Shown one piece after another: positions 38,332-56,648 of a DNA stretch of 64,000 bases. The notes beneath the pieces were generated by a model. It saw only the letters and a program-made list of their open reading frames with translations. It was not told the origin of the DNA and ran no database searches. Both the position numbers and the translations under genes were made by a program. Origin of the DNA: a virus; the IMG/VR virus record IMGVR_UViG_3300037464_000007, positions 5,165 to 69,164 of that record, one strand, 5' to 3'. Each line of letters starts with the position of its first letter. The first letter of the stretch is position 1.

Positions 38332-38682
38332 CTAATCGACTGTCTTTACTTGAGGTTCGATAAAGGTATATTTTCTATCAATACACCTTTTACGTAGAGC
38401 ATCATTCAATCTCAACTTCGGACGGTAGTAGCCTTCGACAGTAATGAAGCTGTTTCTACCAATATCTCGGCGTTTAGTAGTTGGAACAGTTTTATGTCCC
38501 AAGACTCCAAGACCGGGCATTGTAACTTCTTTACCTTCTTCGATAAATGAAACTACTACTTCAAATACAATATCAAAAATCTTAGCAGTTAAAACTTTAG
38601 AGAGTAAAGTACTCTCTCGGCTTTTAATCTCATCTCTAACTCGTTCTACTAACTCTTCTTTCGTAACTTTCGTGAAATTCAT
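38332..38682 (-). CDS. HU/IHF-like histone-like DNA-binding protein
   Basis: TKEELVERV..IFDIVFEVV..EGKEVTMPGLGVL..RRDIGRNSFITV..RPKLRLNDALR. Confidence 0.8.
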   Translation of the reverse strand: MNFTKVTKEELVERVRDEIKSRESTLLSKVLTAKIFDIVFEVVVSFIEEGKEVTMPGLGVLGHKTVPTTKRRDIGRNSFITVEGYYRPKLRLNDALRKRCIDRKYTFIEPQVKTVD

Positions 38683-41700: not shown

Positions 41701-41950
41701 GAGAGAAGCAAATATTACTAAGTTAGATTCTACTTATAAGGAGGTTAGCAACATTCTTACTGTAAAGAAGTCTTATGAATCGTATTTATCTGAGTTAGAC
41801 GATATGTTGGAAAAGATGAATAACTTTGAGTCTATTATCAGTTCTAATATTCAGTTCTCCAGTATAGGAGATAGTGATGATATAAACTTAAGAATAGAGA
41901 AGTTACGCAGAATTCCTAGAGTTGGATGTTTAAAAATGTATGGAAGATAA
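38741..41950 (+). CDS. MuF/SPP1 gp7-type head morphogenesis protein with long insertions and C-terminal extension
   Basis: RIKRIAETEISLAYNLGRL..CTYC..LPPFHVSCWC. Confidence 0.8.
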   Translation: MTTALIKKTNNKSFSSLSTKYVENFVTRVESKLYDFNKTFLTPYKKKLDELDKSVISDIEKNLSSPALLVKNQLDELWNYHWMLGQKDVLSSNKKTSKGTNYSSNPINFITFTTQEDLAVKGIWNAKVEKAILKDYDRRVIRLQRDLNKATNVDKKAISAQLQDISRELEQFLGKIQNRQQTATTKQFATIGVRVRDLQETVRVMELKLSEGTSSISSPTDIDILNSSQFGTIYQDKRTLLLGQSYASDYKKGIISSIKKYFANNEGTRPKTRERDLFTQLTKNTSTNVSKEEITKVKALTNSRDRLSNKDRLAAQAVQEFISSISNGRSLTDKKIRQFIKRDKSASSINKLMSATQGTIYEDNTTRLVDEMRNIGTNEGSYSTNIKLLLQEIKNREKYPLGDNVERVFDTRSNSYRSIEELETSISNIFGIQRIKRIAETEISLAYNLGRLKKLQQLGYRKVRISNEAENNSNRQQALNTYGSLAKAYRSDNNERYLPMLCTYCLTKNNQVMDISTIYKGKVNTKYEVEGKYSSLPPFHVSCWCYFVGVEESKRDSEGSLVSELAEGIKNSVVADSLSNQTTSNAFYNDPFIKKLVIAGAGLLSVGAAYYAYTRLARNKVQIPLNLRPKTSKVSQQISNIPQEIQEASLKNFVDNLDTTAMVEVAEVANKLPKAFRIASSADNLISTVDNQLSQEVYTLTNNTQSTLNELIADNPDYLSVLNSLLTSKKSYEGIRDRILQNKLKGQDLDEIYQTYLDNKQEYEAQLSRYLQATKGKRSNLVDLSSNLNVSAREVILDNRSNLPKGASLQSALDSLKSRKLVDSSNRQLRSIEKNLNKEISNISDLQSRESRLIDTRLGGRDSRARAEQLKNLKPKLPSTSLSTKNLDTVVSNVNRIKRDLNDNRLNLETIRSISKKRLDSSSVADRALLIDTQKQYYRQILTEKERVVSQLKTMTNVDSLENFSKLYRSEISNKAKTGYQYSSGLWREANITKLDSTYKEVSNILTVKKSYESYLSELDDMLEKMNNFESIISSNIQFSSIGDSDDINLRIEKLRRIPRVGCLKMYGR

Positions 41951-43127
41951 GTATTTTACAAGTAGTAGACTAAATCAAATTACTTTTGCTAATAGTAACA
42001 GCCGAAAGATACGAAAGAATATTAACGTTAAAGGGTTCTTTAGAAAAGGTAAATTTGTTAGAGCTTTTAATAGAGAGCAAGACGTAAGAGAGAAAGTAGT
42101 TAAAGTTGCTGTTGCTAGTTTAGCTGTTTTAGGAGGTGCATTAGGAGTTGGAGTTGCTACTGCTGCTTTGACTAAGGTTAGGTATAACAGAAATTTAGTT
42201 AACTTTGGTAAGAATATTGCTAAAGGTGGAATAGGTATTGAAGATATGAAGATTCCTTCTGGAGTTAAAGCTAAAAATTTACCTAAGATTAGAGATTTAA
42301 GTCAAGATAAAGTGCCTAAGAAATCTATGACTTTCTTTATTGGTGGTATGGATAGAGCAGAGAATGGTCAAGGTGATAAGTTTATGAGGTTAGTAAAGAC
42401 AGGTTTTTCTAAACAGAAAAGAGGAGTAGAAGAAAATCATGAACTAATACCTTTATTTCATAACTACCAAGTAAAGAGAGATGTACTTATAGCAGGTAAA
42501 CAAGTTAAAGGGATTCCAGAAGTAGAAGTAGCTCAAGAAATAGCAGATGTGTTTGAGAAAGCAACTGTTAAAGGTTACAACAAAGATTCAGTTATTATGG
42601 CTAATGAAATCTATAAATGGCACAAGTTAAATCCTAGTAAACCTATTAATCTGGTTACTGCTAGTGCGGGAGGTTTTCAAGGTAGAGAAGTTCCACACAT
42701 ATTACAAGCTGCTGGGGTAGATGTAAAAAAGCTAATGAAGGTATTTTCTACTGCAAGTCCTGATTATGGTTTGGTAGACGAGATTGTTCCTACTATGAAA
42801 GTTATGCACAACGATGATTTATACTCTAAAACTATTCCGGGTCTTAAAGATGGTTTGAGATTACCTTCGTTACACCGAGGAACTAGATTTATTGGTAAAG
42901 GGGATACCCCTGAATATAGAGATATGGTTGCTAGAAAGGGCATGGCTGATATGGGGAATGTAGTAACTAAAGGAGATGAAGGGTTTATTGCTGGTAAAAG
43001 ATATATTCTACCTAAGTCTAAACATATGCCAGTCTTTGTACATTTAGGCCCTGCTTATTTTAACGGAGAAACTAAAACTTCTAAAAAGACTTATCAATAT
43101 TTATACAATTTTATGTTTAAAGATTAG
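41940..43127 (+). CDS. putative virion protein with TM segment and alpha/beta-hydrolase-like domain
   Basis: VKGFFRKGKFVRAFNR motif, hydrophobic helix, FFIGGM, nucleophile-elbow-like LVTASAGG, STASP, HNDD. Confidence 0.5.
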   Translation: MEDKYFTSSRLNQITFANSNSRKIRKNINVKGFFRKGKFVRAFNREQDVREKVVKVAVASLAVLGGALGVGVATAALTKVRYNRNLVNFGKNIAKGGIGIEDMKIPSGVKAKNLPKIRDLSQDKVPKKSMTFFIGGMDRAENGQGDKFMRLVKTGFSKQKRGVEENHELIPLFHNYQVKRDVLIAGKQVKGIPEVEVAQEIADVFEKATVKGYNKDSVIMANEIYKWHKLNPSKPINLVTASAGGFQGREVPHILQAAGVDVKKLMKVFSTASPDYGLVDEIVPTMKVMHNDDLYSKTIPGLKDGLRLPSLHRGTRFIGKGDTPEYRDMVARKGMADMGNVVTKGDEGFIAGKRYILPKSKHMPVFVHLGPAYFNGETKTSKKTYQYLYNFMFKD

Positions 43128-43450: not shown

Positions 43451-43675
43451 ATGGCAGGTAAAAGATTAGTTCAAGCAGCTAAGATGGCAGGTACAGGAGC
43501 TGGAGTTGGTTGGGCTACTGGATATGCTGTAGGAGGAAACAATGATAAGATTCCAATGGTAACGAAAGGTAAGATTAAGAAAGGCGGAAAGAAAGCTCCT
43601 ACAATTCAAAGGTCTGCTGCTGTTGGAGGTTTAGTTCTAGGTGCAGGAATGGGATTACTAAAGAAAAAGAAATGA
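43451..43675 (+). CDS. basic Gly-zipper putative virion protein
   Basis: GTGAGVGWATGYAVGG and AAVGGLVLGAGMG segments separated by Lys-rich linkers. Confidence 0.65.
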   Translation: MAGKRLVQAAKMAGTGAGVGWATGYAVGGNNDKIPMVTKGKIKKGGKKAPTIQRSAAVGGLVLGAGMGLLKKKK

Positions 43676-44880
43676 CAATAATTCACTTTAATACTATTCC
43701 TAGCGCTTTAAAAGAAGTTGGTAATAGTGACGACCCAAACGAAATTATAAAAGAAGGCTTAATATTCTACTCTACTGAAGAGAACAATCCTCACGTTGAT
43801 AGTAGAAAGAATAAACATAGTTTTCCTCCAGATAAGATTAGAGAATTAGTAGAAAACACTAACAAACATTTCAATATTTCTGATTGCGGTATTCCTGTCT
43901 TAACTGAACATAAAAAAGATATTAATAATGTGGTAGGCTTTATTGAGTCGCCAATGGAAGCTAGAGTTATAGACGAAACTTATACTAAAGGCAACCCAAA
44001 ACTAAGACATTTAATAGGTCGAGTAGGAGTATTTGTTAAAGATGTTTGTATAAAAGTTCCTGAAATAGTTGATAAGATGAGAAGAGGTCTTGCTAAAACT
44101 GTTTCTGCTGGTATTGATTTAGATACCTTTTCTATTAAAGAACTGTCTCTTGTAGCTCTACCCGCAATTCCAAATGCAACTCTTTTTAGTTATCATGCTA
44201 ATAAGGAATCCAATCAACCAAATATGAAGAAAATAAAAAACAAGAATCTATTAGTATCGAAAGGATATAGTAAAGAAAGTAATTACGCTTTATCTCTTGA
44301 AGAAGCTCTTAATACGTCTCAAACTATTGAAGAACAAAGAGAAGAAGCAATGAAAGTGTTTACTGCATTTCTAGAAGTAGTTGAAGATGCTAATGAAATT
44401 GATCCAGAAGAAATGGCTTCAATGGGGATACAAGACCCGTCTGAACTTATCCAAGGAGCAATTGAGGATTTATCCAATATGTTAGCTGAGATGTTTGTTT
44501 CTGTTCCCGAACCCGAAACTCAACAACCTGCTCCTGTAACTCCTGCTAGACCTGGAATGCCAGCAACTAAAGCTAGGTATTCTTTCTCACCTGAATTAGT
44601 TAAGTTTGCTGCTAATCCTTATGCTAAAAGTGGTAGAATGGCTGCTACTGTTCAAAGCAAGATTAATGATATGGCTACTGGAAAAGGCGCTGCTGGAGTT
44701 TATAGTAAAATAGGTAAAGCAATCAAAACTGTTAAAGCTAATCCTCTTAAAACTGGTGCTGCTCTACTAATAGCTAATCAAGTTAGAAAAACAGGAATGA
44801 AAGCTCTAGATAACCGTAAAAAGAAATCTCAGAGTTTAGAAGGTAAACTATCTCGTGCAATTAAAACATTTAAAAATTAG
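43672..44880 (+). CDS. prohead protease (Mu gpI-like) with acidic and basic C-terminal extensions
   Basis: IPVLTEHKK..VVGFI..KTVSAGIDL..IKELSLVALPAI; located before scaffold and MCP. Confidence 0.7.
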   Translation: MTIIHFNTIPSALKEVGNSDDPNEIIKEGLIFYSTEENNPHVDSRKNKHSFPPDKIRELVENTNKHFNISDCGIPVLTEHKKDINNVVGFIESPMEARVIDETYTKGNPKLRHLIGRVGVFVKDVCIKVPEIVDKMRRGLAKTVSAGIDLDTFSIKELSLVALPAIPNATLFSYHANKESNQPNMKKIKNKNLLVSKGYSKESNYALSLEEALNTSQTIEEQREEAMKVFTAFLEVVEDANEIDPEEMASMGIQDPSELIQGAIEDLSNMLAEMFVSVPEPETQQPAPVTPARPGMPATKARYSFSPELVKFAANPYAKSGRMAATVQSKINDMATGKGAAGVYSKIGKAIKTVKANPLKTGAALLIANQVRKTGMKALDNRKKKSQSLEGKLSRAIKTFKN

Positions 44881-44892
44881 GAAATACAAACT

Positions 44893-45177
44893 ATGAAACG
44901 TCAAGCTAATTTTGGTATTGCTCAAAGTCAAGGACAGCAAATGGCTTTAGATGCAGCTAAAAAAGGAGTTGGTCGAGCTAAACGTGTTGGAGCTGTAATG
45001 GCTAAAAAAGGACTAAAAGCTGTTACTAAAAATCCTGGTAAAGCTGGTTTAGCATTAGCTGGATTAGCTGCTGCCGGAGGTCTTGGAATGGCGGGAGCAA
45101 AAGCAATTGGTAATGCTCGCAAACCAAAAACGTTAGGTGACAGAATTAAGAATGCTTCTAAGAAAATGTTTAAGTAA
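44893..45177 (+). CDS. basic Ala/Gly-rich putative virion protein
   Basis: QANFG tag, GKAGLALAGLAAAGGLGMAG, C-terminal KTLGDRIK. Confidence 0.7.
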   Translation: MKRQANFGIAQSQGQQMALDAAKKGVGRAKRVGAVMAKKGLKAVTKNPGKAGLALAGLAAAGGLGMAGAKAIGNARKPKTLGDRIKNASKKMFK

Positions 45178-45182
45178 ACAAT

Positions 45183-46211
45183 ATGAGTAAAGAACAAAGA
45201 CAAGAAGTATATGAACTCTATGACCAGATCTTAGATGGCTTAGAATCTAATTACTCTAGTGGTGAGTTAGATGAAAATGATTATACTCGACTTAAAATCA
45301 AATCTTTGGCTGACTTAGAAACTTCTTTAATTGAGTTAACAGGATTAAAAGAAAGTAAAATTAGTAACAATGAATCAAATTACAGTATGAATTACGCAAA
45401 TTTCAACATGAAAGGTTATTTTGTTCCTGCTCTTGTAGAGTGTATCGAACAAGACTATGAAACTTTAGAAGATGGTTTAGCAGATATTCTCGAACAAACT
45501 GAATTAACAGAACAACAATTAAATAAGATTCTCAGTGGTAAATTGTTTCCTCGTGCAGAAATGGTAGATATCTTGAATGAGATGTTTACTACAACCTCTA
45601 CTAATGATGAAAATGCTTTACGGTTACAAGCTTTTGCAGCAGTAGATAGAGGAGATTTGGAAGAATCAGTTTTGCTTGAGTTACTGGATGAAACTGAAGA
45701 AGACGATGAAGAGTTGGAAGATGAGGATGAGAATGAAGAGGATAGTGAAGAAGTAGAAGAAGATGAAGAAACTTCTGATGAACCTGACGCTAAATATTCT
45801 TACATTAACGATGAAGTAGAACAATTAAAATCTAAAATTGCTAACTTTGAATTTAATTCTCAGTTACAAGAACGTATTTCTGAAGTAGCACAACTTGCTA
45901 ATCAAGGAATTCAAGAACACTGGCTTACTAAATATAAGAAAGATTTGTATTTAGGTTCAGTCAACAAGATTGAAGATATGGTAGCTAGCTTCTCTCAAAA
46001 TGCAGAAAGCAATGGAGTAGATTTAGAAACTCATCTTTATGCTATCGAATTTGCACTTCAAGCAGATAAAGAAGCTAATGACCCTTCTGTTGATTTTTCT
46101 CGTTATGTAGAAGAAAATCTAACTCCTCCTAACGAAGAAGAAGACGAGTTAATAAAAATTAACGTTGCTAGTATGAAAGAACGTTTAGCAGCTCGCAAAA
46201 GTAACCGATAA
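45183..46211 (+). CDS. probable capsid scaffolding protein
   Basis: Very acidic, helical, basic C-terminal tail, directly upstream of decoration and MCP genes. Confidence 0.6.
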   Translation: MSKEQRQEVYELYDQILDGLESNYSSGELDENDYTRLKIKSLADLETSLIELTGLKESKISNNESNYSMNYANFNMKGYFVPALVECIEQDYETLEDGLADILEQTELTEQQLNKILSGKLFPRAEMVDILNEMFTTTSTNDENALRLQAFAAVDRGDLEESVLLELLDETEEDDEELEDEDENEEDSEEVEEDEETSDEPDAKYSYINDEVEQLKSKIANFEFNSQLQERISEVAQLANQGIQEHWLTKYKKDLYLGSVNKIEDMVASFSQNAESNGVDLETHLYAIEFALQADKEANDPSVDFSRYVEENLTPPNEEEDELIKINVASMKERLAARKSNR

Positions 46212-46234
46212 ATAACAAATAAAGAGAAATAATT

Positions 46235-47068
46235 ATGTTTACAAGATTTGGTAGAGTAGATGCTGAGAAAGCTATTATTGCTTATCCTCGCGGTATCCGA
46301 ACTCCCTTCCACGTATCGCTATCTAATAAGTTTATTAGTAGAAATAAGCAAGGTAAGAATGCTTTGCCTGAAGGAATGTTTGTTTCTAAGAAAAATGGAG
46401 AACATCGATTTCTTCCTCGTGCTAGAGTAACAGCTCCTACAAGCGGTAATCGTATTAAAGTAGGAAATCCTTACTGTTTTGTGCCTGGAGATGTACTAGA
46501 AATTCTTAACCCTTCAGCAATGTTAACCGTCTCTGGGGTTGGTGAAGCCGGAATTACCTACAACAATCAAACATTTAAGTATGTTCCTGTTGGAGCAGCT
46601 AATACAACTGAAGCAGCAACAATTTTAGCAGCTAACTTTAATAGAATTCCTAACTTAAGTAAGAATTTAGAGTTTATTGCTAGTGGAGCTAATCTCTATA
46701 TTTATTCTCCTGCTGGTCGTCCTTTAGCTACTTTTACTCCTTCTGGTACTTTAGGTTCTACTGTAACTACTACTGCTGCTAATACGGTTTCGGTAGGTAC
46801 TGTAGCTTCTATTGACCCTGTTACTGAAGAGATTCTTTTAAGTGGAAATGTAGTAGGTACTTTACCAGTAGGTTCTTCAATTGGAGTTCCGCAAGATGAA
46901 GTTCTTGGTATTTTTCCTCATTCTATTGACTTTACAGAAGGTGGAGTTACAGGTCGTGCATTAGGAGTAGTTCACAAAGCTTATATCTACAAGCTGCATT
47001 TACCTTACTATGACAATAGTTTGGTTTATGAATGTCCTGATTTGGAAGCACGAGAAGTTTGGTCTTAA
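46235..47068 (+). CDS. head decoration protein
   Basis: Position before MCP; ALPEGMFV..FLPRA..ILGIF..IYKLHLPY pattern with a beta-rich insertion. Confidence 0.6.
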   Translation: MFTRFGRVDAEKAIIAYPRGIRTPFHVSLSNKFISRNKQGKNALPEGMFVSKKNGEHRFLPRARVTAPTSGNRIKVGNPYCFVPGDVLEILNPSAMLTVSGVGEAGITYNNQTFKYVPVGAANTTEAATILAANFNRIPNLSKNLEFIASGANLYIYSPAGRPLATFTPSGTLGSTVTTTAANTVSVGTVASIDPVTEEILLSGNVVGTLPVGSSIGVPQDEVLGIFPHSIDFTEGGVTGRALGVVHKAYIYKLHLPYYDNSLVYECPDLEAREVWS

Positions 47069-47093
47069 TAAGAAATAACTAACAAATAAAAAT

Positions 47094-48260
47094 ATGAGTC
47101 ACGTCGCATCATTTTTCAACGAACCTTTTATCAATAAGCAAATTAATGCCATTGTTGATGAAACACATCGAGATTTACTTAAACGAGATAAATTAATCGA
47201 TGAAGCAATGCCAACCCAGACGTTTGAAACTAGAAACTTCATGGCGTTGTTAACTTCCCGTATTGCTCCTGCTGCTAGAGTAGTTGCTTGGGGTGCAGAG
47301 ATTCCTGTAACTCGTCACGGTGGATTTGAGAAAGTTACAGCTCAACTCACTAAACTTGCTTTATCTCACAGATACGATGAAGAAGATATGTGGGCGTTGT
47401 CAGAAGCATATCAACTAGCAGGTTATATGTGGAACAAAATTCAAACTATCCACAAACCAGACGGAACTGTTCAAAGAGGCGCTAATGACGATTTAGCTAC
47501 TGCTTTATTTGGAGATGTTCAGCAGCTCTTAGATGGTATGGTCGATAGAATGGACATGATGAAGTGGCAGGCAGTATCTACAGGTGCTTTAAACATTGAG
47601 GATATGTCTACTGGAGTCAAGTTTGAGATTGACTACAAGAAAGCAAACGCACCTTATAACCACTTCCCTCTTCCTCTTGTTGCTACAGGTAATACTGCTA
47701 ATCCTGCTCTTAATAAGTGGAGCGACAAACAGAACGCAGATGGTTTCCGCAATATTCAAGACTTAGTTGAAACTTATGACGATACTAACGGGTTTCAACC
47801 TGACAAGATTGTAATGAACCGCAAACTCTGGAATTTGTTTTTAGATCAGAAATCTACTAAAGAAGCTGCTCGTGCAATGACTACTTCAGAGATTGGTTTG
47901 GTTTCTAGAGATATGGCAGATGAGTTACTACGCAGACGTAAGCTACCTCCTGTAGTAGAGTTTGGTGAAAAGTATCATGAAGAAGTTCCGGGTGGAGAAG
48001 CTGTTACTGCAAACTTCTTAAACGATAACCGGATTGTATTCTTGAAGAATAAGATGGGTATCTCGGCTATTGGCCCCACTATGGAGTCTAAAACTAATAT
48101 CATTTCTAGCGGTAAAGATATTCCTAAGATTAAAACAGGTATTTACTTAGATATCTATACTGAAAACGGTCGTCCTCCTAATGATGTGGTAGCCACTGTT
48201 GCTAGCTTTATTCCTATTATCATGAATCCTAAACTTTTGATGGCACAGACCGTAAACTAA
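47094..48260 (+). CDS. major capsid protein (lambda gpE/Phage_cap_E-like)
   Basis: 388 aa; AARVVAWGAEIP..KLALSHRYDEED..RMDMMKWQAVSTG..IDY..PDKIVMN. Confidence 0.85.
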   Translation: MSHVASFFNEPFINKQINAIVDETHRDLLKRDKLIDEAMPTQTFETRNFMALLTSRIAPAARVVAWGAEIPVTRHGGFEKVTAQLTKLALSHRYDEEDMWALSEAYQLAGYMWNKIQTIHKPDGTVQRGANDDLATALFGDVQQLLDGMVDRMDMMKWQAVSTGALNIEDMSTGVKFEIDYKKANAPYNHFPLPLVATGNTANPALNKWSDKQNADGFRNIQDLVETYDDTNGFQPDKIVMNRKLWNLFLDQKSTKEAARAMTTSEIGLVSRDMADELLRRRKLPPVVEFGEKYHEEVPGGEAVTANFLNDNRIVFLKNKMGISAIGPTMESKTNIISSGKDIPKIKTGIYLDIYTENGRPPNDVVATVASFIPIIMNPKLLMAQTVN

Positions 48261-48261
48261 T

Positions 48262-48714
48262 ATGAGAGAATATATCCTTCACAAAACTTTTAGAGATAAA
48301 ACAGGTAACTTTTATTGGGCTAGAACAACTCCATATCCAGAAGGAGAACTACCTGATTATATTACTAAAGACCCAACTAAAGTATCTATTATCGAAACGG
48401 ATACTCATATTGCGGAATCTGTTTTAATCAATCCTGTTCAAGAAGTAAGAAACTTAACACCTGCTGTAGAACATTTAGTACCTTTAACTCCTCAATTTGT
48501 AGAAGCTAATCCAGTTATTACTACTAGAATAGATATTAATACTGCCTCTATTGAGGATATTAAAAATATTAAAGGAATAGCTGAAAAAACTGCAACATTA
48601 ATTGTTACTAGCCGACCTTATGAAAGTATGGCTGATTTAACTACTAGAGTTAAGCCCCCTTTAGGTAAAACTTGGGCAGATTTTCCTTTTAAATATGGGT
48701 CAACTGAAGAGTAA
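48262..48714 (+). CDS. ComEA-like helix-hairpin-helix DNA-binding protein
   Basis: RIDINTASIEDIKNIKGIAEKTATLIVTSRPYESMADL. Confidence 0.75.
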   Translation: MREYILHKTFRDKTGNFYWARTTPYPEGELPDYITKDPTKVSIIETDTHIAESVLINPVQEVRNLTPAVEHLVPLTPQFVEANPVITTRIDINTASIEDIKNIKGIAEKTATLIVTSRPYESMADLTTRVKPPLGKTWADFPFKYGSTEE

Positions 48715-48738
48715 ACTTTTACTAAAACGAGCAATGAT

Positions 48739-48776
48739 AAAGTATAGTTTAGTAGATAGGCTATACTTTTATTTTT
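48739..48776 (+). terminator. intrinsic terminator after capsid genes
   Basis: AAAGTATAG..CTATACTTT followed by TATTTTT. Confidence 0.65.
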
Positions 48777-48781
48777 AGAAT

Positions 48782-49207
48782 ATGCTAATTAAATCAAAAG
48801 TTACAACTCTTCAAGTAGTTAGAGATTCTACAGTAGAGAAACCTTATATTTATCTCAAAAACTCAAGTCATTCTATTAGAGATACAATTCCAGTAGTAAT
48901 AGATATTAATGCTAGCGAACCTATTAGAATAAATAATATAGCTTTAACGTTTAAACTAATACATCAACTTACTGGATTAGTTCTCAAACAATACGACAAC
49001 ACTAGCTTTGTCTTTCCTCTAATTAAACCATCTGATATTCAGGCAGTTTTGTACATTAACGGTTCTGATATTGCTAGTTTCTATCAAGCTAAAGGGTTAG
49101 AGTTTTCTAGTAGAATTCACAATATTATTTACGAGTTAGATATATCAGTAAAGACTACAACTAATATGTCCAGATACACAGATACAGGAAGTTTCTATTT
49201 AACATGA
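48782..49207 (+). CDS. putative virion protein (BppU/Ig-like beta-sandwich)
   Basis: C-terminal YELDISV..TDTGSFYL, shared with 49204 and 58085. Confidence 0.5.
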   Translation: MLIKSKVTTLQVVRDSTVEKPYIYLKNSSHSIRDTIPVVIDINASEPIRINNIALTFKLIHQLTGLVLKQYDNTSFVFPLIKPSDIQAVLYINGSDIASFYQAKGLEFSSRIHNIIYELDISVKTTTNMSRYTDTGSFYLT

Positions 49208-49605
49208 GCATTAAAGTATCTACTTATCGAGAATGGAAAGATAATCCTCTTTCAGGTTCTATTGTTCCAAGGTCAGACGATTTACCTTTAGGAGTTACCT
49301 TAGAATCTACTGACAATCCTTCATTACTAGGAGTTGGGGTATCCGTTAACTTTACTGTCTTTACTAACACTTCTACTACTAATTTTAGTGTTGGAAATTA
49401 CGGGACTAACAGCGGTTTATCTCCTATAGTTACTGAACCTAATAAAATAATCTTTAAAGGTTTAGTAGAAAAAGAAACAATTCAGTCAAAGTTAGACTCA
49501 AAACTAGACTCATCTATTTACTACGTTGTTAAAGGAACTTTTCCAGATACAGCAGAAGTTACGTTAGATGAAGGTTATTTCACAAGTAAAGTTACATTAA
49601 TATGA
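49204..49605 (+). CDS. putative virion protein (BppU/Ig-like)
   Basis: C-terminal YYVVKGTF..LDEGYFT. Confidence 0.5.
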   Translation: MSIKVSTYREWKDNPLSGSIVPRSDDLPLGVTLESTDNPSLLGVGVSVNFTVFTNTSTTNFSVGNYGTNSGLSPIVTEPNKIIFKGLVEKETIQSKLDSKLDSSIYYVVKGTFPDTAEVTLDEGYFTSKVTLI

Positions 49606-50012
49606 GAATTATTAAGTTTATAGGGTCTACTAACTCTTCTTATGCAAGAGGAAAAGATAAAAAGAAACGAAAAAATCGAGGTTTATTAACTACAGGAGCT
49701 TTAACTCTTACCGGAGGAGCTGTTGGAAGTAGACTGGCTCAAACAGGCATAATAACAAAGAAAATGAAGAAAAATTTTCTTAAAGGAGCAGGTAGAAAAA
49801 TGAAACTCTCTGAGAAAATAATGAGCCATGTTATAGCAAATAACGTAGTTAACACTACCCATAATAGTAGTAATGCTCCTAAAAAAATAGTAAAGCTATT
49901 TAATAAAGCTAAATTACGTGGAGGAATTAAAGGATCTGCTATTGGAGCAGGAGTAGGTTTAGGTGGAACATTGTTAGTAAATAAATTAAAAAACAGAAAG
50001 AAGGATAAATAA
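49602..50012 (+). CDS. basic Gly-zipper putative virion protein
   Basis: MRIIKFIGS..YARGKDKKKRK tag and two GxxxG-rich helices. Confidence 0.7.
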   Translation: MRIIKFIGSTNSSYARGKDKKKRKNRGLLTTGALTLTGGAVGSRLAQTGIITKKMKKNFLKGAGRKMKLSEKIMSHVIANNVVNTTHNSSNAPKKIVKLFNKAKLRGGIKGSAIGAGVGLGGTLLVNKLKNRKKDK

Positions 50013-50016
50013 CACT

Positions 50017-50781
50017 ATGACTAAGCTAAAAATTATCAATCGAACTCCGTTAAAAAGCCGTCCTATTCCTTTTATTGAATTGCAACCGAAATATCTTTAT
50101 TGGTTAGATACTGGTAGAGAAATAGAAGTTGAAATTTTAAAAGAGAAAGACGCTCATTATGAAGTTAAGTTAGCTACTAATTTTCCTGATAGTCCAGTAG
50201 GAATTAGAACTTGGTTTATTTATAATGAACACGTTGAAGTAATAGAAGATAAGAAAAAGAAATCTACTAAGAATGTATTGAAAACTGATTATTACTACCA
50301 AATAGATAACCATTATCATCCTTATACTTCTTGCTTTTTGACTTGTGTAGCTATGTTACTATCTTTTTATAAGATTAAAGTAACTCCTGACCAACTATAT
50401 AACAAGTGTTTAGATTTAGGTTATGATAGGTTTTCTTGGCAAGATATTACTGCAATACTTAAGAGCTACGGAATCAAACATTACTCTACTACTTCTGGTA
50501 CTGCTCAAGAGTTAAAAGATGCTGTAACTAAAGCTCCTGTAATTTTAGGGACTTACTTAACTGAAGCTAGCCATATTGTTTTAGTAGTGGGATTTGATGA
50601 TTCTGCTTATGATGGTAGAGGTGCATTTGTAGTTAATGACCCTTATGGTGAATTTACTCATAACGGCTACATCCACACTCCAACAGCAGGGAAAGAGACT
50701 TTATATTCCTATTCTCTAATTGCTCAAGTTGGCGCACCTGAAGGTGATGGAAATTATTGGTTACATTTACCGGAGAATTAA
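50017..50781 (+). CDS. endolysin, peptidase C39-like
   Basis: SH3-like N-terminus; YYYQIDN..SCFLTCVAM (Cys), SHIVLVVGFD (His), VNDPYG. Confidence 0.8.
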   Translation: MTKLKIINRTPLKSRPIPFIELQPKYLYWLDTGREIEVEILKEKDAHYEVKLATNFPDSPVGIRTWFIYNEHVEVIEDKKKKSTKNVLKTDYYYQIDNHYHPYTSCFLTCVAMLLSFYKIKVTPDQLYNKCLDLGYDRFSWQDITAILKSYGIKHYSTTSGTAQELKDAVTKAPVILGTYLTEASHIVLVVGFDDSAYDGRGAFVVNDPYGEFTHNGYIHTPTAGKETLYSYSLIAQVGAPEGDGNYWLHLPEN

Positions 50782-50784
50782 ATT

Positions 50785-51057
50785 ATGGAAACTAAAATGA
50801 GACGCTCTCTTTACTTAACAAAAACATTTCTATTTTCAGTAGTGCTTTATCTATCCGTAGTTTATCAACCTCTTGTTAATTACATTTATGAGGGTCAGAT
50901 GAGCAAAGATGATTTTACTGCTTTACTTGTAGGAACATTTGGTTTTCTAGGAGTAAGTGGAAGTCGAGCAAGAGTTAATGACGATATTAGAGCTAGTGCA
51001 AGAGAAGGAGTACCCGTTGGATTAGTAGGGACGGGTATTCCCAACAATAAAGTATAA
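50785..51057 (+). CDS. probable holin
   Basis: 90 aa, two hydrophobic segments, directly after the endolysin. Confidence 0.6.
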   Translation: METKMRRSLYLTKTFLFSVVLYLSVVYQPLVNYIYEGQMSKDDFTALLVGTFGFLGVSGSRARVNDDIRASAREGVPVGLVGTGIPNNKV

Positions 51058-51064
51058 AAATGAG

Positions 51065-52624
51065 ATGGTTGTATTTAGTGTATTATTTGAGAAAATTGAG
51101 GATGAGTATTATTACCGATATATAAGTGATAGTATTACGTATTACCTCCCTAGCTACCGTACTGATAGATTAGACAAACCTATTAGTAGCTTTATTAATG
51201 CTCAAGGGCCAATTTATGCTGAGTCAGTTTATAAGTTCTTAAATAAAGCTTTTGAGACTGGTGAACATATTGAAGATTTTACGGTTAAAGACCCAAGAAG
51301 TGAAAAAGAGATATCGTTAACTCTCTTTGGTTATAAATATCTCAATTTCATTATCCTAGTTGGTAGTCAAAAATCAGATAGTTTATTAGAAAACACTTTA
51401 TTTAAAGAGAATTACCTATTTCTTATTCAATGGGCTAACTCAAAAGAATGTGTTCCTGAAGATATATCTGATAATTTAGCCGGACTTCTTGAATATACAA
51501 AGCAGGAGATATTAGCTAAACCGTATATTTCTTTAATTCATTCTGATGATGTTAGTTCTTTTAAATCTGAGCTGCTTACTTATTTAGATAAAGGTACTGC
51601 ATCTTTCTATCAGAAATATAGATTAGTTACTAAGTCGAGTAAGGATATAACTGTTCTTGACCATACTTGCAGAATTCTAAGAGAAAACGCTGTTGTTACT
51701 ATTAGCTATTTAAGAGATATTACTAAAGATGAGTTAATGTCTAGTAGGTTAGCTGAGTTAGCTTTATTAGACGAAGAAAACTTTAATACTAGCTTACTTA
51801 TAAAAATCGAATGGGATAGAAACTTCAACATTTCTCGATGGAATCAACAAGCTAGAGAGCTATTAGGTTGGGATAACTCTATTATTGGTAAAAATATTAG
51901 AGATATAAGTCTTCTTAATTCTGAAGATGCAATTGCAATGCAAGGACAGCTTAAGAGGTTACTTAACCATGAAGTAGAATTAGTAGTTAGCAATTATAAA
52001 ATCTGCAAAAAAGACGGCAGTCACTTAGATACTAAATGGTCTAACAAGCTTGCTATAAGAGACGGGGATTTAAGAGTTTTATCTTCAATTATTGATAGAA
52101 GTGAAGAAGCGTTATTAGCTACTAAATTAATAGAGATGGAGGAAAGGTCAGACTTACTGCTCAAGACTCTTTACTCTACTAATACCAACTTTAACAATGA
52201 CGTATTTAGAAAACTTGTAGATACTCCTTTAACTTCTAGCTCTGAAGGATTGATTAAAGCTGAGATAATTATTAGAAAGATAGAAGAAGAGTTAAAAAGA
52301 CTTAATGATACTATTTTTCACAATAATGGTAACAATCTTTTAAGTGAAGTAGCTAATCTCAAATATGAAGTTAAAGATATTAGAGAAGATGTTAGTAGAA
52401 TTAAGGAGAGTCAGTCTAAGCTATCTACTGAGTTAAGCGATTTATTAAATATTAATATACTTAGTTTAGGTAAGAATCTTAACTTCAAGAACTTAACAGG
52501 GTTACTTGTAGTTAGTTATGTAATATTCGGGTTAGTGTTTCCGGGTCTTTACCATAATTTAGCTAAACCTTATCTTATCCAATACTATAAAGAATTAAAA
52601 CAAATAGAAGGGAAAAAGGATTAA
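51065..52624 (+). CDS. multi-PAS sensor protein with coiled coil and C-terminal TM, no output domain
   Basis: PAS/PAC signatures: ISDNLAGLLEYTKQEIL..LIHSDD..YRLVTKS..RDIT and EWDRNFNISRWNQQARELLGW..CKKDGS..W.N..D; C-terminal LTGLLVVSYVIFGLVF. Confidence 0.85.
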   Translation: MVVFSVLFEKIEDEYYYRYISDSITYYLPSYRTDRLDKPISSFINAQGPIYAESVYKFLNKAFETGEHIEDFTVKDPRSEKEISLTLFGYKYLNFIILVGSQKSDSLLENTLFKENYLFLIQWANSKECVPEDISDNLAGLLEYTKQEILAKPYISLIHSDDVSSFKSELLTYLDKGTASFYQKYRLVTKSSKDITVLDHTCRILRENAVVTISYLRDITKDELMSSRLAELALLDEENFNTSLLIKIEWDRNFNISRWNQQARELLGWDNSIIGKNIRDISLLNSEDAIAMQGQLKRLLNHEVELVVSNYKICKKDGSHLDTKWSNKLAIRDGDLRVLSSIIDRSEEALLATKLIEMEERSDLLLKTLYSTNTNFNNDVFRKLVDTPLTSSSEGLIKAEIIIRKIEEELKRLNDTIFHNNGNNLLSEVANLKYEVKDIREDVSRIKESQSKLSTELSDLLNINILSLGKNLNFKNLTGLLVVSYVIFGLVFPGLYHNLAKPYLIQYYKELKQIEGKKD

Positions 52625-52626
52625 CT

Positions 52627-52977
52627 ATGTGGCGACCATTTGACAATCCAGCTAAAAGACGAAAAAGATTTATAGAAAAAAACAGTCCTTACCTTGTACC
52701 TTTAGCGGTTGGAGGACTAGCAGCTATGGGAGATGAAAATGCTTCTACTAGACAACGACTTAAAAGAGGTTTAGTTACTGGGGGACAAACTTTTGCAGCT
52801 ATGAAGACAGCAGGAGTATTTGCTAATAATAAGAGCAAAAAGAACTACTACCAAAATACAATTTTACCAACGGTTCAACAAGCTAGAGGAATAGCTAATA
52901 CAGGAATCAATCTACAAAAGAATATGAGAGCTGCTACTAAATTTGACTTCTGGAAAAAGAAGAAAGGATTAATTTAA
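52627..52977 (+). CDS. basic amphipathic putative virion protein
   Basis: LVPLAVGGLAAMG, GLVTGGQTFAAM, Lys-rich ends. Confidence 0.6.
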   Translation: MWRPFDNPAKRRKRFIEKNSPYLVPLAVGGLAAMGDENASTRQRLKRGLVTGGQTFAAMKTAGVFANNKSKKNYYQNTILPTVQQARGIANTGINLQKNMRAATKFDFWKKKKGLI

Positions 52978-53570
52978 TGTATAAATACTGCACAGTAGAA
53001 AAGATTCAAAGAAGGTTGGGTAGACGAGCTAATATATTTACTGAGTCACTAATACCCTCAGATAATGTATCTGTTATATCTTCTAATCTAGATGTAGAGT
53101 TAGTACATGAACTAATAGAAGCAAATGAAGCTCTTATAGATACTTATTTTAGAATGCTGTATGTTCTACCAATACATCTTTTAGATATCCCTCTAATAGA
53201 GCCTATAGTAGTCGGATTTGTTATTAACGATTTGATGATGTCCTTATATGACCAAGGGATGATAGCTTCATTAGGAGGTGATGGAGGTTTAGGTTCTACT
53301 ATATATCAAAAAGCTAAAGAGTTACTTAAGAGTTACTTTATTGGTACTAATATCTACATTCCAGGTGTATCTGCTCCAGAAGATAATGCAATGCAAAATG
53401 CTTCTAGATTAATTCTCCCTAATACTCTAGAGTTAGGATATAAAAGAACTTCTGCTACTCAAAACTTTACTGTTATTGGAGATTATAAACGGAATAAAAA
53501 TAATTTAGGTTTGGATTTTGGGGAAGATAGAAAATATAGAGGTGTTGAAATCTCTTGGGGAACTTATTAA
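52977..53570 (+). CDS. head-tail adaptor (Mu gp36/DUF1320-like)
   Basis: YCTVEKIQRRLG..LIEANEALIDTYFR.LY.LP..YQKAKELLK. Confidence 0.7.
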   Translation: MYKYCTVEKIQRRLGRRANIFTESLIPSDNVSVISSNLDVELVHELIEANEALIDTYFRMLYVLPIHLLDIPLIEPIVVGFVINDLMMSLYDQGMIASLGGDGGLGSTIYQKAKELLKSYFIGTNIYIPGVSAPEDNAMQNASRLILPNTLELGYKRTSATQNFTVIGDYKRNKNNLGLDFGEDRKYRGVEISWGTY

Positions 53571-53590
53571 TTAATAGAAAAACAAAAACT

Positions 53591-54469
53591 ATGTTGTACG
53601 ACATTACGTTTGCTAATCAAAATCAATTTACTAATTTCGGGAGAGGTAAAGATAAGACTAAAAGAAAAAGTAGAGTTTCTGTTGCTGCTGGAGCTGGTTT
53701 AGGTACTGTAGCAGGAGGCCCAGTTGGAACTATCGCTGGGGGATTAATAGCTCGTGGAATTAATAAAGAAAAAGATAGATATGAAAAACAAGGCCCAAGA
53801 AGTCATTTAGGTAAGATTGGTCACGATGCTAAATTAGGAGCTAAATCAGTAGGTATAGGTAGTGCTATTACTGCTGGATTGGCTGGAGCAGCTTTAGGCT
53901 CTAGATTACCAACTGTTAAAAAGAAAGGATTTTTAGGATTAGGAAGAGATAAGAAAGCAGAAGCTAAACAGAAACTCAAAAATACTCTTATGGGAGCAGG
54001 TTTAGGTATTCTTGGAGGTGGAGTTAGTGGTGCTGTTTCTGGAGCAGGTAACGGAGCTTTAGTAGGTGCTGGTAGAGGATTTCTTCAAGAAAATAAAACT
54101 AAGAAAAAGAAAGGTAAGTTTTCTAATTCTACTAAACTTGCTGAATTTGCTTTGAGTCTTCCTCCTAAAAAGCAGAAACAAAGAAGTAGATTGGGGATGG
54201 TTGGTCACGATACTAAAAAAGGAGCTAAGATTGGGGCGGGTTTAGGAGCAGCTTATTTAGGAAGTGTAGGTGTTAGAGCAGGGATGAAACAACCTGGTAG
54301 CCTAAAATCTAAAATAGCAGGTGCTGTTTTAGGTGCAGGGATAGGTACTCTTGCGGGGAGTGCAGGTGGAGCAATTCAAGGTGCTAAAACAGGCCTTGGT
54401 GTTGGAGTAGTTCGGTCTTTAGTAACCCCAAGAAAAAAGAAGTCTTTATTTGATAGATTTAAAAAATGA
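53591..54469 (+). CDS. basic Gly-zipper putative virion protein, two repeated modules (start moved to MLYDITF)
   Basis: ITFANQNQFTNFGRGKDKTKRKSR; RSHLGKIGHDAK and RSRLGMVGHDTK repeats; C-terminal KKKSLFDRFKK. Confidence 0.75.
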   Translation: MLYDITFANQNQFTNFGRGKDKTKRKSRVSVAAGAGLGTVAGGPVGTIAGGLIARGINKEKDRYEKQGPRSHLGKIGHDAKLGAKSVGIGSAITAGLAGAALGSRLPTVKKKGFLGLGRDKKAEAKQKLKNTLMGAGLGILGGGVSGAVSGAGNGALVGAGRGFLQENKTKKKKGKFSNSTKLAEFALSLPPKKQKQRSRLGMVGHDTKKGAKIGAGLGAAYLGSVGVRAGMKQPGSLKSKIAGAVLGAGIGTLAGSAGGAIQGAKTGLGVGVVRSLVTPRKKKSLFDRFKK

Positions 54470-54473
54470 TGCT

Positions 54474-55316
54474 ATGAGAAAGATTATTTTTATGGGACAG
54501 CAAGAAACTATTAACTTTACTAAATCCACTAAGAAAAGAGATATAAAAAATGGTATCGCTAATCTAGCAGCTACAGCTTATTTAGGTCAGCAAACTATTC
54601 GCTCAGGTGTTCCGAGATTACTAGGTGTTAGGTTAGAGTCACATAGTACAAGTAAAAAAAATGCTAAAGAAATTCTTAAAAACGGTGGTATTTTAGACCC
54701 AAATTATGGAGGTACAGGAGCAAGTAAAGCTCTAAATGATAAACATTACATTAATCAATCTAAAAACTATGTACATCTTACAGGGAGACATAAAGATGAT
54801 ATTGGAAAAACTACTCTACTAAAAGACCTTATTCATAGAAAACGTCAGAGAGCTATGTATCGAGGGCTTCCAGGTGAAGATATAAACACTAAAGATGTTG
54901 GTAAAATTGCACGTAATCTATTAAAAGGGTTAACGGGAGTTAAAGGTAAGACTTTGTATCTTGGGGGAAGTGATAATTATTTTAATAAGAATTTTATTTC
55001 TGACCCTAGTGATATAGCTCTTAAAACATCTAATAAAGTTCGTGTACATGGAAATAGAACAACTGCAACTCTAGAGGCTTTAAAAAGAGAAGGTAATGGG
55101 GATAGGTTAAAAGGTATATCTAAATTAGTAAAAGCTAACCCAAAAAGAGCTTTAGCAGGAGTGGCTATTCTTACTGTTGGCACCGGACTAACCTCTATAA
55201 GTGCAAAAGATACTTACAACAGTTTTAACGGCAAAGTCAAAGGACATACTAGAAAGAATAAATCTGGTAAATGGTCAAATGTTAAATCATTTATAAGAGA
55301 TAAAATAAAGAAATGA
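54474..55316 (+). CDS. putative virion protein carrying a KptA/Tpt1-like ADP-ribosyltransferase-fold domain (start moved to MRKIIF)
   Basis: SHSTSKKNAKEILKNGGILDP..YVHLT resembles KptA HGT..ILK.GL.P..YVHLS; flanked by hydrophobic helices. Confidence 0.55.
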   Translation: MRKIIFMGQQETINFTKSTKKRDIKNGIANLAATAYLGQQTIRSGVPRLLGVRLESHSTSKKNAKEILKNGGILDPNYGGTGASKALNDKHYINQSKNYVHLTGRHKDDIGKTTLLKDLIHRKRQRAMYRGLPGEDINTKDVGKIARNLLKGLTGVKGKTLYLGGSDNYFNKNFISDPSDIALKTSNKVRVHGNRTTATLEALKREGNGDRLKGISKLVKANPKRALAGVAILTVGTGLTSISAKDTYNSFNGKVKGHTRKNKSGKWSNVKSFIRDKIKK

Positions 55317-55822
55317 GAGAAATAATATTTGTTAATTCTACTAATATTAACTTTGGTAGAGGTAAGGACAAGACTAAAAGAAAAAGTAGAATTGGTTTAG
55401 CTTCTTCTATTGCTACTGGAGCAACTATAGGAGCTAGTAAATATGGAGCTTTAGGTGCTTTATCTGGAGCAGGTAATCTTGCTGGTATTGGAATAGGAAT
55501 AGACAAAGATATTGATAAAGAAAAGACTAGATTTAAAAAGTCTGGTTCAAGGTCTAGATTAGGTAAAGTTGCTAACGATGCAAAAAGTGGAGCTAGAAAT
55601 GTAGGTGGAGCAACAGCTAGTCTAGGACTTATAAATACAGTTCTAAAAACTAAAGGTAAGCTCAAAGACCGAGCTATTAAAGGAATTGGTAAAGGCTTAG
55701 TTTGGGGAGCTAAAGGTGCATTAGCAGGTGGATTAGCTGGTTCTAGTGTAGGTACTACAAGAGGTTTAGTTCAACCTAATAAAAAGAAAAGTCTATTACA
55801 GAGGCTAAAAGATAAGAAATGA
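55313..55822 (+). CDS. basic Gly-zipper putative virion protein
   Basis: MREIIFVNSTNINFGRGKDKTKRKSR; RSRLGKVANDAK; KKKSLLQRLK. Confidence 0.75.
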   Translation: MREIIFVNSTNINFGRGKDKTKRKSRIGLASSIATGATIGASKYGALGALSGAGNLAGIGIGIDKDIDKEKTRFKKSGSRSRLGKVANDAKSGARNVGGATASLGLINTVLKTKGKLKDRAIKGIGKGLVWGAKGALAGGLAGSSVGTTRGLVQPNKKKSLLQRLKDKK

Positions 55823-56310
55823 GAAAGATAAATTTTATAGGCTCTACTAGCTCAAATTATCTATTTGGTAAACCTAAAAAACCTTCTCGATTAAAAAGTG
55901 CAGGTATTGGAGCTGGAGTTGGTGTAGCTGCTGGTTATAATGCAGGTGGAATTCCCGGTGCAGTAATGGGGGGACTTAGAGGTGCTACTGATAGTTTTGT
56001 TAGAAAGAACGGTTACAACTCTCTACTTACAAGAGCTAAAAGATATGCTCCTACTTCTTTTGCAGGTAAAGTGACTAATGATGCTAAAACTATTGGAACT
56101 CTTTCTGCTGCTGGAGGTGGATTAACTGGAGCTGTTAGAGGAGGACTCAAAGGATTAAAAGGTGGTTGGAAAGGTGCTTTAGGAGGAGCAGTTGGTCAAG
56201 GAGCTAGAAGTGCATTCGGAGCTACTAAAAAAGGAGCTGCTGTAGGTGCAGGAATTGGTGGACTGAGAGGATTGAAGAGAAAGAAAAACTACTTACTACC
56301 TACTTCTTAA
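55819..56310 (+). CDS. basic Gly-zipper putative virion protein
   Basis: MRKINFIGS..YLFGKPKK; FAGKVTNDAK; GxxxG arrays. Confidence 0.75.
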   Translation: MRKINFIGSTSSNYLFGKPKKPSRLKSAGIGAGVGVAAGYNAGGIPGAVMGGLRGATDSFVRKNGYNSLLTRAKRYAPTSFAGKVTNDAKTIGTLSAAGGGLTGAVRGGLKGLKGGWKGALGGAVGQGARSAFGATKKGAAVGAGIGGLRGLKRKKNYLLPTS

Positions 56311-56312
56311 CT

Positions 56313-56648
56313 ATGCCTAAGAGTAAATGTAAGTTTCGTTCTAAGTTTAATACTTGGAAAAGAAGTAGAGAAGCTTGGGAGATTAGTAGAAGTCTTATTA
56401 GAAAGTCATTGTATCTATGTCCAATATGTAGATTACCTTTATCACTAGGAGAAGGACATCTATTTCACATCATCCCTATAAAACTACTTAAGGTACATAA
56501 CTCTATTACTTTAGTTACTAATGACCTTAACCTCCTTTACTCGTGTAAGTCATGCAACTTAAAGCAAGGTACTAACATCTATCAGCCTTGTTTAGAAAAT
56601 AAATTATTAACATTATGGAACAATATAACCAATGAGAAATGCACTTAA
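56313..56648 (+). CDS. HNH endonuclease
   Basis: CPIC..HIIP..NLLYSCKSCN. Confidence 0.75.
   Translation: MPKSKCKFRSKFNTWKRSREAWEISRSLIRKSLYLCPICRLPLSLGEGHLFHIIPIKLLKVHNSITLVTNDLNLLYSCKSCNLKQGTNIYQPCLENKLLTLWNNITNEKCT

Follow-up and report, generated by a model that had tools for sequence, protein, structure and literature searches.

The window analysed here is a stretch of 64,000 nucleotides (64 kb out of the 80.9-kb viral record IMGVR_UViG_3300037464_000007) from an uncultured long-tailed phage of soil or biocrust metagenomes. Between positions 43451 and 56310 its late head/neck operon encodes small Gly/Ala-zipper proteins, all-helical and strongly basic, which belong to several separate families. 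A common N-terminal leader fronts at least five unrelated protein bodies, and the reading that we favour, tentatively, is that it directs these proteins into the phage head as internal cargo, by analogy with the internal proteins of T4. The leader-tagged genes of the window, together with gene H that is related to tagged genes elsewhere, are the following.

49602..50012, + strand: G, 136 residues, the leader followed by a different body that ends GGIKG.AIGAG.GLG...L.NKL
52627..52977, + strand: H, 116 residues, basic, without the IxFxG part of the leader, body SPYLVPLAVGG...
53591..54469, + strand: I, 292 residues, leader-tagged, two fused K-type units (from BLASTP, zipper z scores and dN/dS)
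54474..55316, + strand: J, 280 residues, leader found by profile (E 1.6e-14)
55313..55822, + strand: K, 169 residues, a single unit (from alignment and exhaustive profile search)
55819..56310, + strand: L, 163 residues, leader-tagged, with the highest glycine content (23%)

The leader comprises ~28 residues with the consensus M-R-x-I-x-F-x-G-S-T-x-S-x-Y/F-G-R-G-K-D-K-x-K-R-K-S-R. A hidden Markov model (HMM) based upon five N-termini in the window was searched against the six-frame open reading frames (ORFs) of the whole record and of 14 related loci, where noise begins above E = 0.1. It matches solely the extreme N-termini of + strand genes of the head/neck module. In whole relatives of 130–151 kb there are one to five leader matches per genome, all of them within that module. 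A collection of 5.8 billion proteins holds 93 leader-bearing clusters, all from this clade, with the leader starting at or before residue 5 in 85 of the 93. The bodies of these clusters fall into six BLAST groups: K/I including fusions to the J domain (51), G (20), L (8), H (8) and two lesser ones. When a profile of K, I and L was searched exhaustively, it returned only 33 clusters among 1.84 billion representatives, every one of them tagged (33/33), and the K/I/L family is restricted to the clade. No precomputed Pfam domain is assigned to any leader-search match, and Pfam scans of ten of these gave only sub-threshold matches to glycine zippers. One leader-bearing homologue has been named SlyB-like by JGI.

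The leader is conserved as a protein sequence. Its DNA at 53629–53689 in I is 80% identical over 61 nt to that at 55345–55405 in K, with 62% identity to 49634–49694 in G. The recurrence of RGKDKTKRKSR at the DNA level, noticed in an earlier sequence-only reading of the region, is confirmed. The 61-nt comparison covers the stretch coding for GRGKDKTKRKSR, and between I and K the 13 codons of FGRGKDKTKRKSR differ only synonymously. Several known processing or export signals were compared with the leader. A Tat signal was rejected, because the twin arginine is not conserved. The Gly-Gly (GA/GS) cleavage site of C39 peptidases, with hydrophobic residues at −4, −7 and −12, is not present in the leader, which has G-R-G or G-K-P, and this position is not conserved in J or L. 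The NLQ core of the Prp motif MLxx(D/N)LQ(F/L)F'A(S/H)KK (PMC9405229) is missing from the leader, and PF04327 (Prp) was not found in the record. A generic code, F/Y and then G/A/N near the N-terminus, is found in 11/29 head proteins against 15/89 (p = 0.04), in a test that is post hoc and inflated by paralogues, and hence weak.

K has a single unit, in which the leader is followed by Gly-zipper 1, the RSRLGKVANDAK motif, Gly-zippers 2 and 3, and the tail QPNKKKSLLQRLKDKK. I consists of two such units, each of which aligns with K (BLASTP E 5e-23 and 3e-12), and is under purifying selection with a ratio of nonsynonymous to synonymous substitution (dN/dS) of 0.18. Its second unit retains a relic of the leader (around ...AEFALSLPPKKQKQRSRLG), and the full leader is present on free-standing versions of that unit (P0028, P0032, P0034 and P0035). 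Relic leader halves are retained between the units of I and also of the multi-unit fusions P0088, P0096 and P0151. L carries a variant leader, GKPKKPSRLK, and is a paralogue of K (BLASTP E 8e-6); hhalign also supports the relationship of I, K and L. The module RS(R/H)LGK..(N/H)DAK is present in two copies in I and in one in K, and L has it as TSFAGKVTNDAK, a recurrence that had been described from the sequence and was found again here.

The remaining proteins do not join this family. The BLASTP match between G and K is confined to residues 1–40, and hhalign gives 98% probability over the leader columns only. When A and C (untagged proteins described below) and H are compared with the K family and with each other, hhalign probabilities are <20%, close to those of reversed-sequence controls. 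The proposal of one expanded family is not confirmed, with I, K and L as paralogues, G sharing just the leader, and A, C and H not demonstrably related to the K family or to one another. The body of H is nevertheless homologous, by visual alignment, to those of the leader-bearing P0037, P0147, P0149 and L022:7332-7628. J has the first half of the leader, a conserved domain that is not a Gly-zipper, a C-terminal hydrophobic helix and a basic tail; in P0138, J is fused behind a leader and a Gly-zipper unit. The best language-model look-alike of the J domain scores 0.89 and serves only as a lead: it is an unnamed cluster whose records come chiefly from Candidatus Melainabacteria. The C-terminal KK.SL..R.K that was thought to be shared by all members is homologous within I/K and, separately, within C and the tail of the B protein (see below). 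It does not unite the two sets, since the B-tail/C HMM fails to retrieve the I/K tails above noise (E ~30); across all members the motif is defined solely by a post hoc regular expression with four matches in the record, all at those C-termini.

The listed proteins have net charges of +14 to +43 and Gly plus Ala contents of 17–37%. Glycines spaced at i+4/i+8 are more frequent than in shuffled sequences in I (z 4.1/3.7), in K (z 3.0/2.4) and in L (z 4.1/3.2). A and G show a smaller excess (z ~2), C shows one only as small-xxx-small (z 3.1), and the shuffle test gives no Gly-zipper periodicity in H, J, B taken whole, or X (a further gene described below). The GxxxG hairpins with basic linkers that had been ascribed to the whole set are a real observation, but one that merged distinct proteins. 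Scores against the Pfam glycine-zipper families PF13441 (YMGG), PF13436, PF13488 and PF05433 are 14–18 bits, where the cut-offs are 25–29; the best are 15.7–18.1 bits, for cut-offs of 25–28.9. The Gly-zipper segments are marginally hydrophobic, with Kyte–Doolittle (KD) values of 0.7–1.5 and summed apparent insertion free energies on the biological scale (dGapp) of +3 to +10 kcal/mol, and so lie below classical transmembrane (TM) values; X, the C-terminus of J, and C come nearer to these, and a holin-like neighbour at 50785 has KD 1.64. All of the genes are under purifying selection (dN/dS 0.07–0.41), so that they are real genes and not artefacts of Gly/Ala-rich reading frames. No match above threshold was found for any of the nine proteins in Pfam or PHROG, nor for I by tblastn against 50,697 phage records. 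AlphaFold2 (AF2) modelling of K with a 14-row alignment gives an all-helical structure with a predicted local distance difference test score (pLDDT) of 50, unusable for fold search. L modelled as four copies scored 0.01 against a mark of 0.42, which neither supports nor opposes an oligomer.

The gene content of the region varies widely between related phages. In a slot map of eleven loci, anchored on the conserved genes, basic Gly-rich ORFs fill seven to eight intergenic slots, and the content of these slots differs between phages whose flanking genes are 90–99% identical. The main island, taken from the gp36-like head-completion gene to the HNH endonuclease gene (or to 56632 where the latter is missing), holds one gene in G001, L022 and L020, three in L002, four in the window and L021, and five in G002 and L023. 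In G001, where the flanking genes are 84–97% identical, a single gene of 120 residues replaces I-J-K-L, and G and H are also missing. The G slot is empty in L002, G002 and G001, and in L021 G lies one slot upstream; L002 instead carries a tagged gene after the peptidase gene. J is missing in L002 and follows the HNH gene in L021. The gene at the K position in G002 is only 45% identical to K, compared with 97% for the major capsid protein (MCP). Conversely, L is 83–86% identical to L020:7140-7631 and L023:6645-7130, where the MCP has 52–55% amino acid identity, and its synonymous divergence (dS) is 0.74 against 1.89 for the MCP. L has diverged less than the MCP by both measures, which indicates that this one cassette has been exchanged horizontally between phages, and recently. 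The cassettes end in Lys-Lys with a stop codon overlapping the next ATG (AAGAAATGAGA), and this junction together with the conserved leader DNA provides obvious points for recombination. The pattern indicates that the tagged types (I, K, L, G, J and the relatives of H) are accessory cassettes that are gained, lost, fused and swapped between phages.

Upstream of the tagged genes there are two untagged genes, A and C, the putative protease gene B, and a fourth gene, X, whose status is doubtful.

41940..43127, + strand: X, 395 residues, possible degenerate leader (..ITFANS..), one strong hydrophobic helix (KD 2.0) and an unassigned domain
43451..43675, + strand: A, 74 residues, basic, untagged, two Gly-zipper segments
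43672..44880, + strand: B, 402 residues, putative prohead protease
44893..45177, + strand: C, 94 residues, basic, untagged, Ala/Gly-zipper

The ORFs listed in the sequence-only reading, from A to L, all exist on the + strand and are tightly packed or ATGA-overlapping with head and neck genes. Membership of X in the leader family is tentative because the leader HMM does not detect it. A adjoins the putative protease gene in all six loci that cover the region, upstream in three and downstream in three, with orthologues in L002, G002, G001, L025 and L007 (MCP identity 54%). C is paralogous to the last 75 residues of the B protein. Residues 308–360 of B have 43% identity over 53 residues to the C gene of L002 (tblastn, E 2e-6), and an HMM shared by the B tail and C scores 53–61 bits. 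In G001, L007 and L025, C is replaced by a longer type (C2) ending RSDKGKKRG; genes of A type and of C or C2 type stand beside 43672 in 6/6 covering loci. Another C-terminal motif, (G)RSDKGKKRG/K, recurs at the end of a number of otherwise dissimilar basic Gly-zipper proteins of the relatives (L004:7385-7837, L007:1663-2061, L014 (the G001 island gene), L021:5490-5825, L024:7628-7975 and L002:13289-13702) and is missing from the genes of the window.

B combines a highly conserved N-terminal part of ~200 residues with a variable, basic C-terminal tail that resembles C. B matches a gene of Pseudanabaena phage PA-SR01 that bears the depositor's note 'Mu-like prophage I protein' (30% identity over 221 residues, E 2e-22), and the language-model features of the Atlas give Mu-like_Pro, S77/S80 and DUF2213 as leads. 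From these and the position of the gene we infer that 43672 encodes a prohead protease. Tests with PF10123 and PF04586 (Mu-like_Pro and Peptidase_S78) gave no match for 43672 or in the record, and Pfam returns nothing for the PA-SR01 homologue itself.

The late structural operon runs on the + strand from 36.7 kb. The other genes in and around the region are as follows.

36702, + strand: large terminase
38332–38682, − strand: gene between the terminase and MuF-like genes
38741–41950, + strand: MuF-like protein, 1069 residues
43101–43358, − strand: Cro/CI-type helix-turn-helix (HTH) gene, 85 residues, midway in the late head operon and directly upstream of A
45183, + strand: scaffold-like protein, very acidic (25% Asp+Glu), between C and 46235
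46235, + strand: gene between the acidic 45183 and the MCP
47094, + strand: MCP (PHROG 29, E 2e-34)
between the MCP and G, + strand: HHH protein, then two small proteins
50017, + strand: C39-like cysteine peptidase (Pfam E 1.5e-17; PHROG 'endolysin' 2e-18)
between the C39-like peptidase and the PAS-TM protein, + strand: TM protein, 90 residues
51065, + strand: PAS protein, 519 residues, with a C-terminal TM helix
52977, + strand: head-completion gene, weak Mu gp36-like match
56313–56648, + strand: HNH endonuclease gene, bordering the cassette island
56632, + strand: gene following the HNH gene
57250, + strand: GP4 gp80-like fibre
62982, + strand: tape measure protein, 3144 residues

The C39-like peptidase, the TM protein and the PAS-TM protein make up a lysis-like cassette (50017–52624), which separates head genes from neck genes and which G and H alone of the set flank. 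Identity of the peptidase is 71–94% across all relatives, including those with MCPs ~54% identical. The 38741 protein contains at residues ~440–560 what we take to be a MuF/SPP1 gp7-like Cys motif region, which is Pfam-negative; one hydrophobic segment of this protein is Gly-zipper-like (KD 1.46), and its long C-terminal half is rich in Ser and Lys. The window has no gene recognised as a portal, and a sheath-sized gene was not noticed in the phage, where no search was aimed at one. A scan for promoters and terminators gave no signal exceeding shuffled sequences.

The HNH gene, which L024 and L022 lack, is separated in L021 from the following conserved gene by a gene of J type; the HNH gene may play a part in recombination nearby. 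The opposite-strand HTH arrangement is also seen in L025, where the gene is annotated HTH_3. The positional equivalent of 38332–38682 in L025 is annotated Bac_DNA_binding (HU-like, PF00216), and if that annotation applies here the phage encodes a histone-like protein of its own.

The window has a GC content of ~33% and no tRNAs. Two sequencing runs contain DNA of the phage, from soil and biocrust metagenomes (these may be the source samples), and no RNA runs are listed. The nearest named phage is PA-SR01, with an MCP identity of 28%. The IMG/VR relatives are contigs of 130–151 kb; two, of 146.5 and 151.2 kb, have terminal repeats and are rated ~48% complete by CheckV. L025 (JGI 3300000436) sits on a 308-kb contig, and is either a 300-kb member of the clade or a concatemer assembly. 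Two scans of 185,579 reference genomes, with profiles of the MCP and the J domain, found no relative. The Melainabacteria lead for J, the cyanobacterial host of the nearest cultured phage and the biocrust origin together hint at a cyanobacteria-related host.

The leader is confined to head-module genes and is joined to unrelated bodies that are basic and hypervariable in content, and it is this combination that favours leader-directed loading of the procapsid. In this tentative reading the leader would be a capsid-targeting, and possibly a processing, signal. It would load the proteins into the procapsid before packaging, perhaps onto the acidic scaffold-like 45183 protein, and within the head the clusters of Lys and Arg would neutralise the charge of the DNA. 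The proteins would leave with the DNA upon infection, and the marginally hydrophobic glycine zippers might then insert into a host membrane. Such insertion is plausible by analogy with the glycine-zipper toxins and with Tde1 (PMC12955049). The earlier suggestion of internal ejection proteins survives in part: it is consistent with the late head/neck operon, the module-confined leader and the basicity, and what is disfavoured is the multi-subunit conduit attached to it.

A number of observations weigh against this interpretation. The leader consensus contains no Glu, and thus no (L/I)xE site of the T4 gp21 type. A membrane anchor, too, would have a basic N-terminus ahead of a hydrophobic stretch rich in Gly and Ala, and a lysis-like cassette lies in the middle of the module adjoining two of the slots. 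The identity of the protease is unsupported by profile searches of Pfam, PHROG and PDB (the last with the N-terminal domain), which gave no match for B, and structure prediction yielded no confident fold for K or for the N-terminal domain of 43672 (AF2 pLDDT 45 for the latter).

The closest comparison is with the internal proteins IPI, IPII and IPIII of T4, which are likewise small basic proteins encoded among head genes, variable between relatives, with a short conserved N-terminal leader (PMC3012670, PMC9026906). The T4 proteins share only the capsid-targeting sequence (PMC3012670); their lysines contact the packaged DNA, and they are injected along with it (PMC3012670, PMC9026906). Two marks of that class, an N-terminal sequence common to unrelated head-module proteins and hypervariable gene content, are found here. 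The present proteins differ from those of T4 in having no sequence similarity to them, a leader of ~28 rather than ~10 residues without the gp21 site, and Gly-zipper helices in place of compact anti-restriction folds, and the phage itself is long-tailed with a huge tape measure protein. In P1 the N-terminal 30 residues of DarB direct a reporter to the capsid (PMC9024508), so that there too an N-terminal signal of ~30 residues sends heterologous cargo to the head (PMC9024508, PMC12810830). The P1 cargo, however, consists of large enzymes loaded stepwise via DarA and Hdf, with no homology to the present proteins and no expansion of cassettes. The statement that no described system could be matched was accordingly too strong, as the T4 internal proteins (PMC3012670) and the P1 DarB signal (PMC9024508) share the same logic.

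The ejection or inner-body proteins of the giant phages SPN3US and phiKZ (PMC7411985, PMC10052503) and the ejection proteins of P22 and T7 (PMC8402733) resemble the present proteins in being internal to the head, a location that is predicted here. Some of these sets comprise paralogous families, are processed by the prohead protease and are delivered to the cell (PMC7411985, PMC10052503, PMC8402733). They share no homology with the tagged proteins, and they are conserved and essential, whereas copy number varies here. Repeated GxxxGxxxG in helical hairpins is a feature of SlyB/Rick_17kDa (Gly-zipper 2TM), Tse4, CdzC/D, TelE and Tde1, of which the known ones insert into membranes, form pores or translocate. 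The glycine zippers of the toxins (Tse4, CdzC/D, TelE and Tde1) bring about this insertion or translocation, that of Tde1 serving translocation of a type VI secretion system (T6SS) DNase (PMC12955049). The proteins of the window differ from these in lacking a lipobox and a secretion-system domain, in being far more basic, and in their location in a phage head module.

The alternative that survives best, itself unlikely, is that these are membrane proteins of the infected cell that are not part of the virion, acting as timers like holins and antiholins, as cationic lysis factors resembling the 'disruptins', or in superinfection exclusion. The leader would then be the cytoplasmic, positive-inside N-terminus preceding the first hydrophobic hairpin. 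The anchor-like arrangement mentioned above suits this explanation, as do the TM protein and the endolysin-matching C39-like peptidase (PHROG 2e-18) inside the module, the tagged genes in slots on both sides of that peptidase in several relatives, and the SlyB-like name given to one homologue. Yet the segments fall short of the usual TM thresholds (KD 0.7–1.5, dGapp +3 to +10), and they have no cysteine or lipobox. A sequence-specific leader of 28 residues placed over unrelated bodies exceeds what a positive-inside patch requires, and lysis factors would not usually come in one to five or more copies of 100–400 residues. The main island follows the head-completion gene; H and the gp36-like gene separate it from the lysis-like genes, which lie ~1 kb upstream.

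It is more doubtful still that the proteins are components of the prohead core, filling the procapsid like a scaffold together with the acidic 45183 protein and being degraded or expelled at maturation; they would then neither bind DNA in the virion nor be ejected. A and C/C2 stand beside the putative protease and the acidic gene in every covering locus, and C is paralogous to the tail of the protease; the protease gene of Mu-type heads has the scaffold as its C-terminal part. The relic leaders between fused units would also be expected of cleavage sites. Set against this, the number of scaffold genes is normally fixed, while the tagged genes number from one to five or more in phages with nearly identical backbones and are horizontally exchanged, and the acidic protein already suits the role of scaffold.

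Internal cargo loaded by the leader could also have a more elaborate function, in which the leader and zipper together form a modular delivery cassette: the leader would load whatever body is fused to it into the head, and the marginally hydrophobic zipper hairpin would, once ejected, carry that body across the inner membrane of the host, much as the zipper of Tde1 does with a T6SS DNase. This extension is improbable. Under it, the natural fusions would be delivered effectors, and the island an arms-race locus recombining at the leader and at the KK-stop junctions. Candidates for such effectors are the leader–zipper–J domain protein P0138, the chains of several units P0088 and P0096, in which relic leaders persist, and perhaps also X (41940).

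An obligate multi-subunit DNA channel across the host envelope, as proposed in the sequence-only reading, is very improbable. Long-tailed phages usually form their channel from the tape measure protein, here 3144 residues, and this, the marginal hydrophobicity of the zippers and the variable gene set all speak against such a conduit; in G001 a single gene stands in place of I-J-K-L, without G or H. In its favour are the real GxxxG periodicity of I, K and L, the ability of glycine zippers to form pores (PMC12955049), and the trans-envelope conduits provided by the ejected proteins of P22 and T7 (PMC8402733), to which, as to every other ejection-protein family, the proteins have no homology.

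There is hardly any likelihood that the leader is of the bacteriocin or Prp type, cut by the C39-like 50017 peptidase or by a Prp-like protease of the host to release Gly-rich cationic peptides as membrane toxins: the C39-family peptidase is indeed conserved in all relatives, and the order of aromatic, small and Lys-rich residues in the leader is loosely like that of the L27/80alpha head-protein site ..LQFF'ASKK (PMC9405229), but the motif tests fail, with no Gly-Gly at a plausible cleavage point and no (D/N)LQ(F/L)F core, the record contains no Prp gene and no exporter, and the C39-like protein matches phage endolysin PHROGs. Class II bacteriocins have been counted in its favour too. They are Gly-rich and cationic.

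That extreme basicity goes together with true glycine-zipper periodicity suggests that the proteins act both in binding DNA and at the membrane. Should they prove instead to serve only in the membrane or in lysis, the leader would remain a highly specific common signal in want of an explanation. If the leader is a capsid-targeting signal, the region would represent a second, independent and much more expanded strategy of T4-style internal proteins, in an uncultured long-tailed lineage of soil, and would offer a ready-made tag of 28 residues for loading proteins into a new type of capsid. The structure of the cassettes, with the leader, the KK-stop/ATG junction and seven to eight slots, illustrates how a set of cargo proteins can be diversified.

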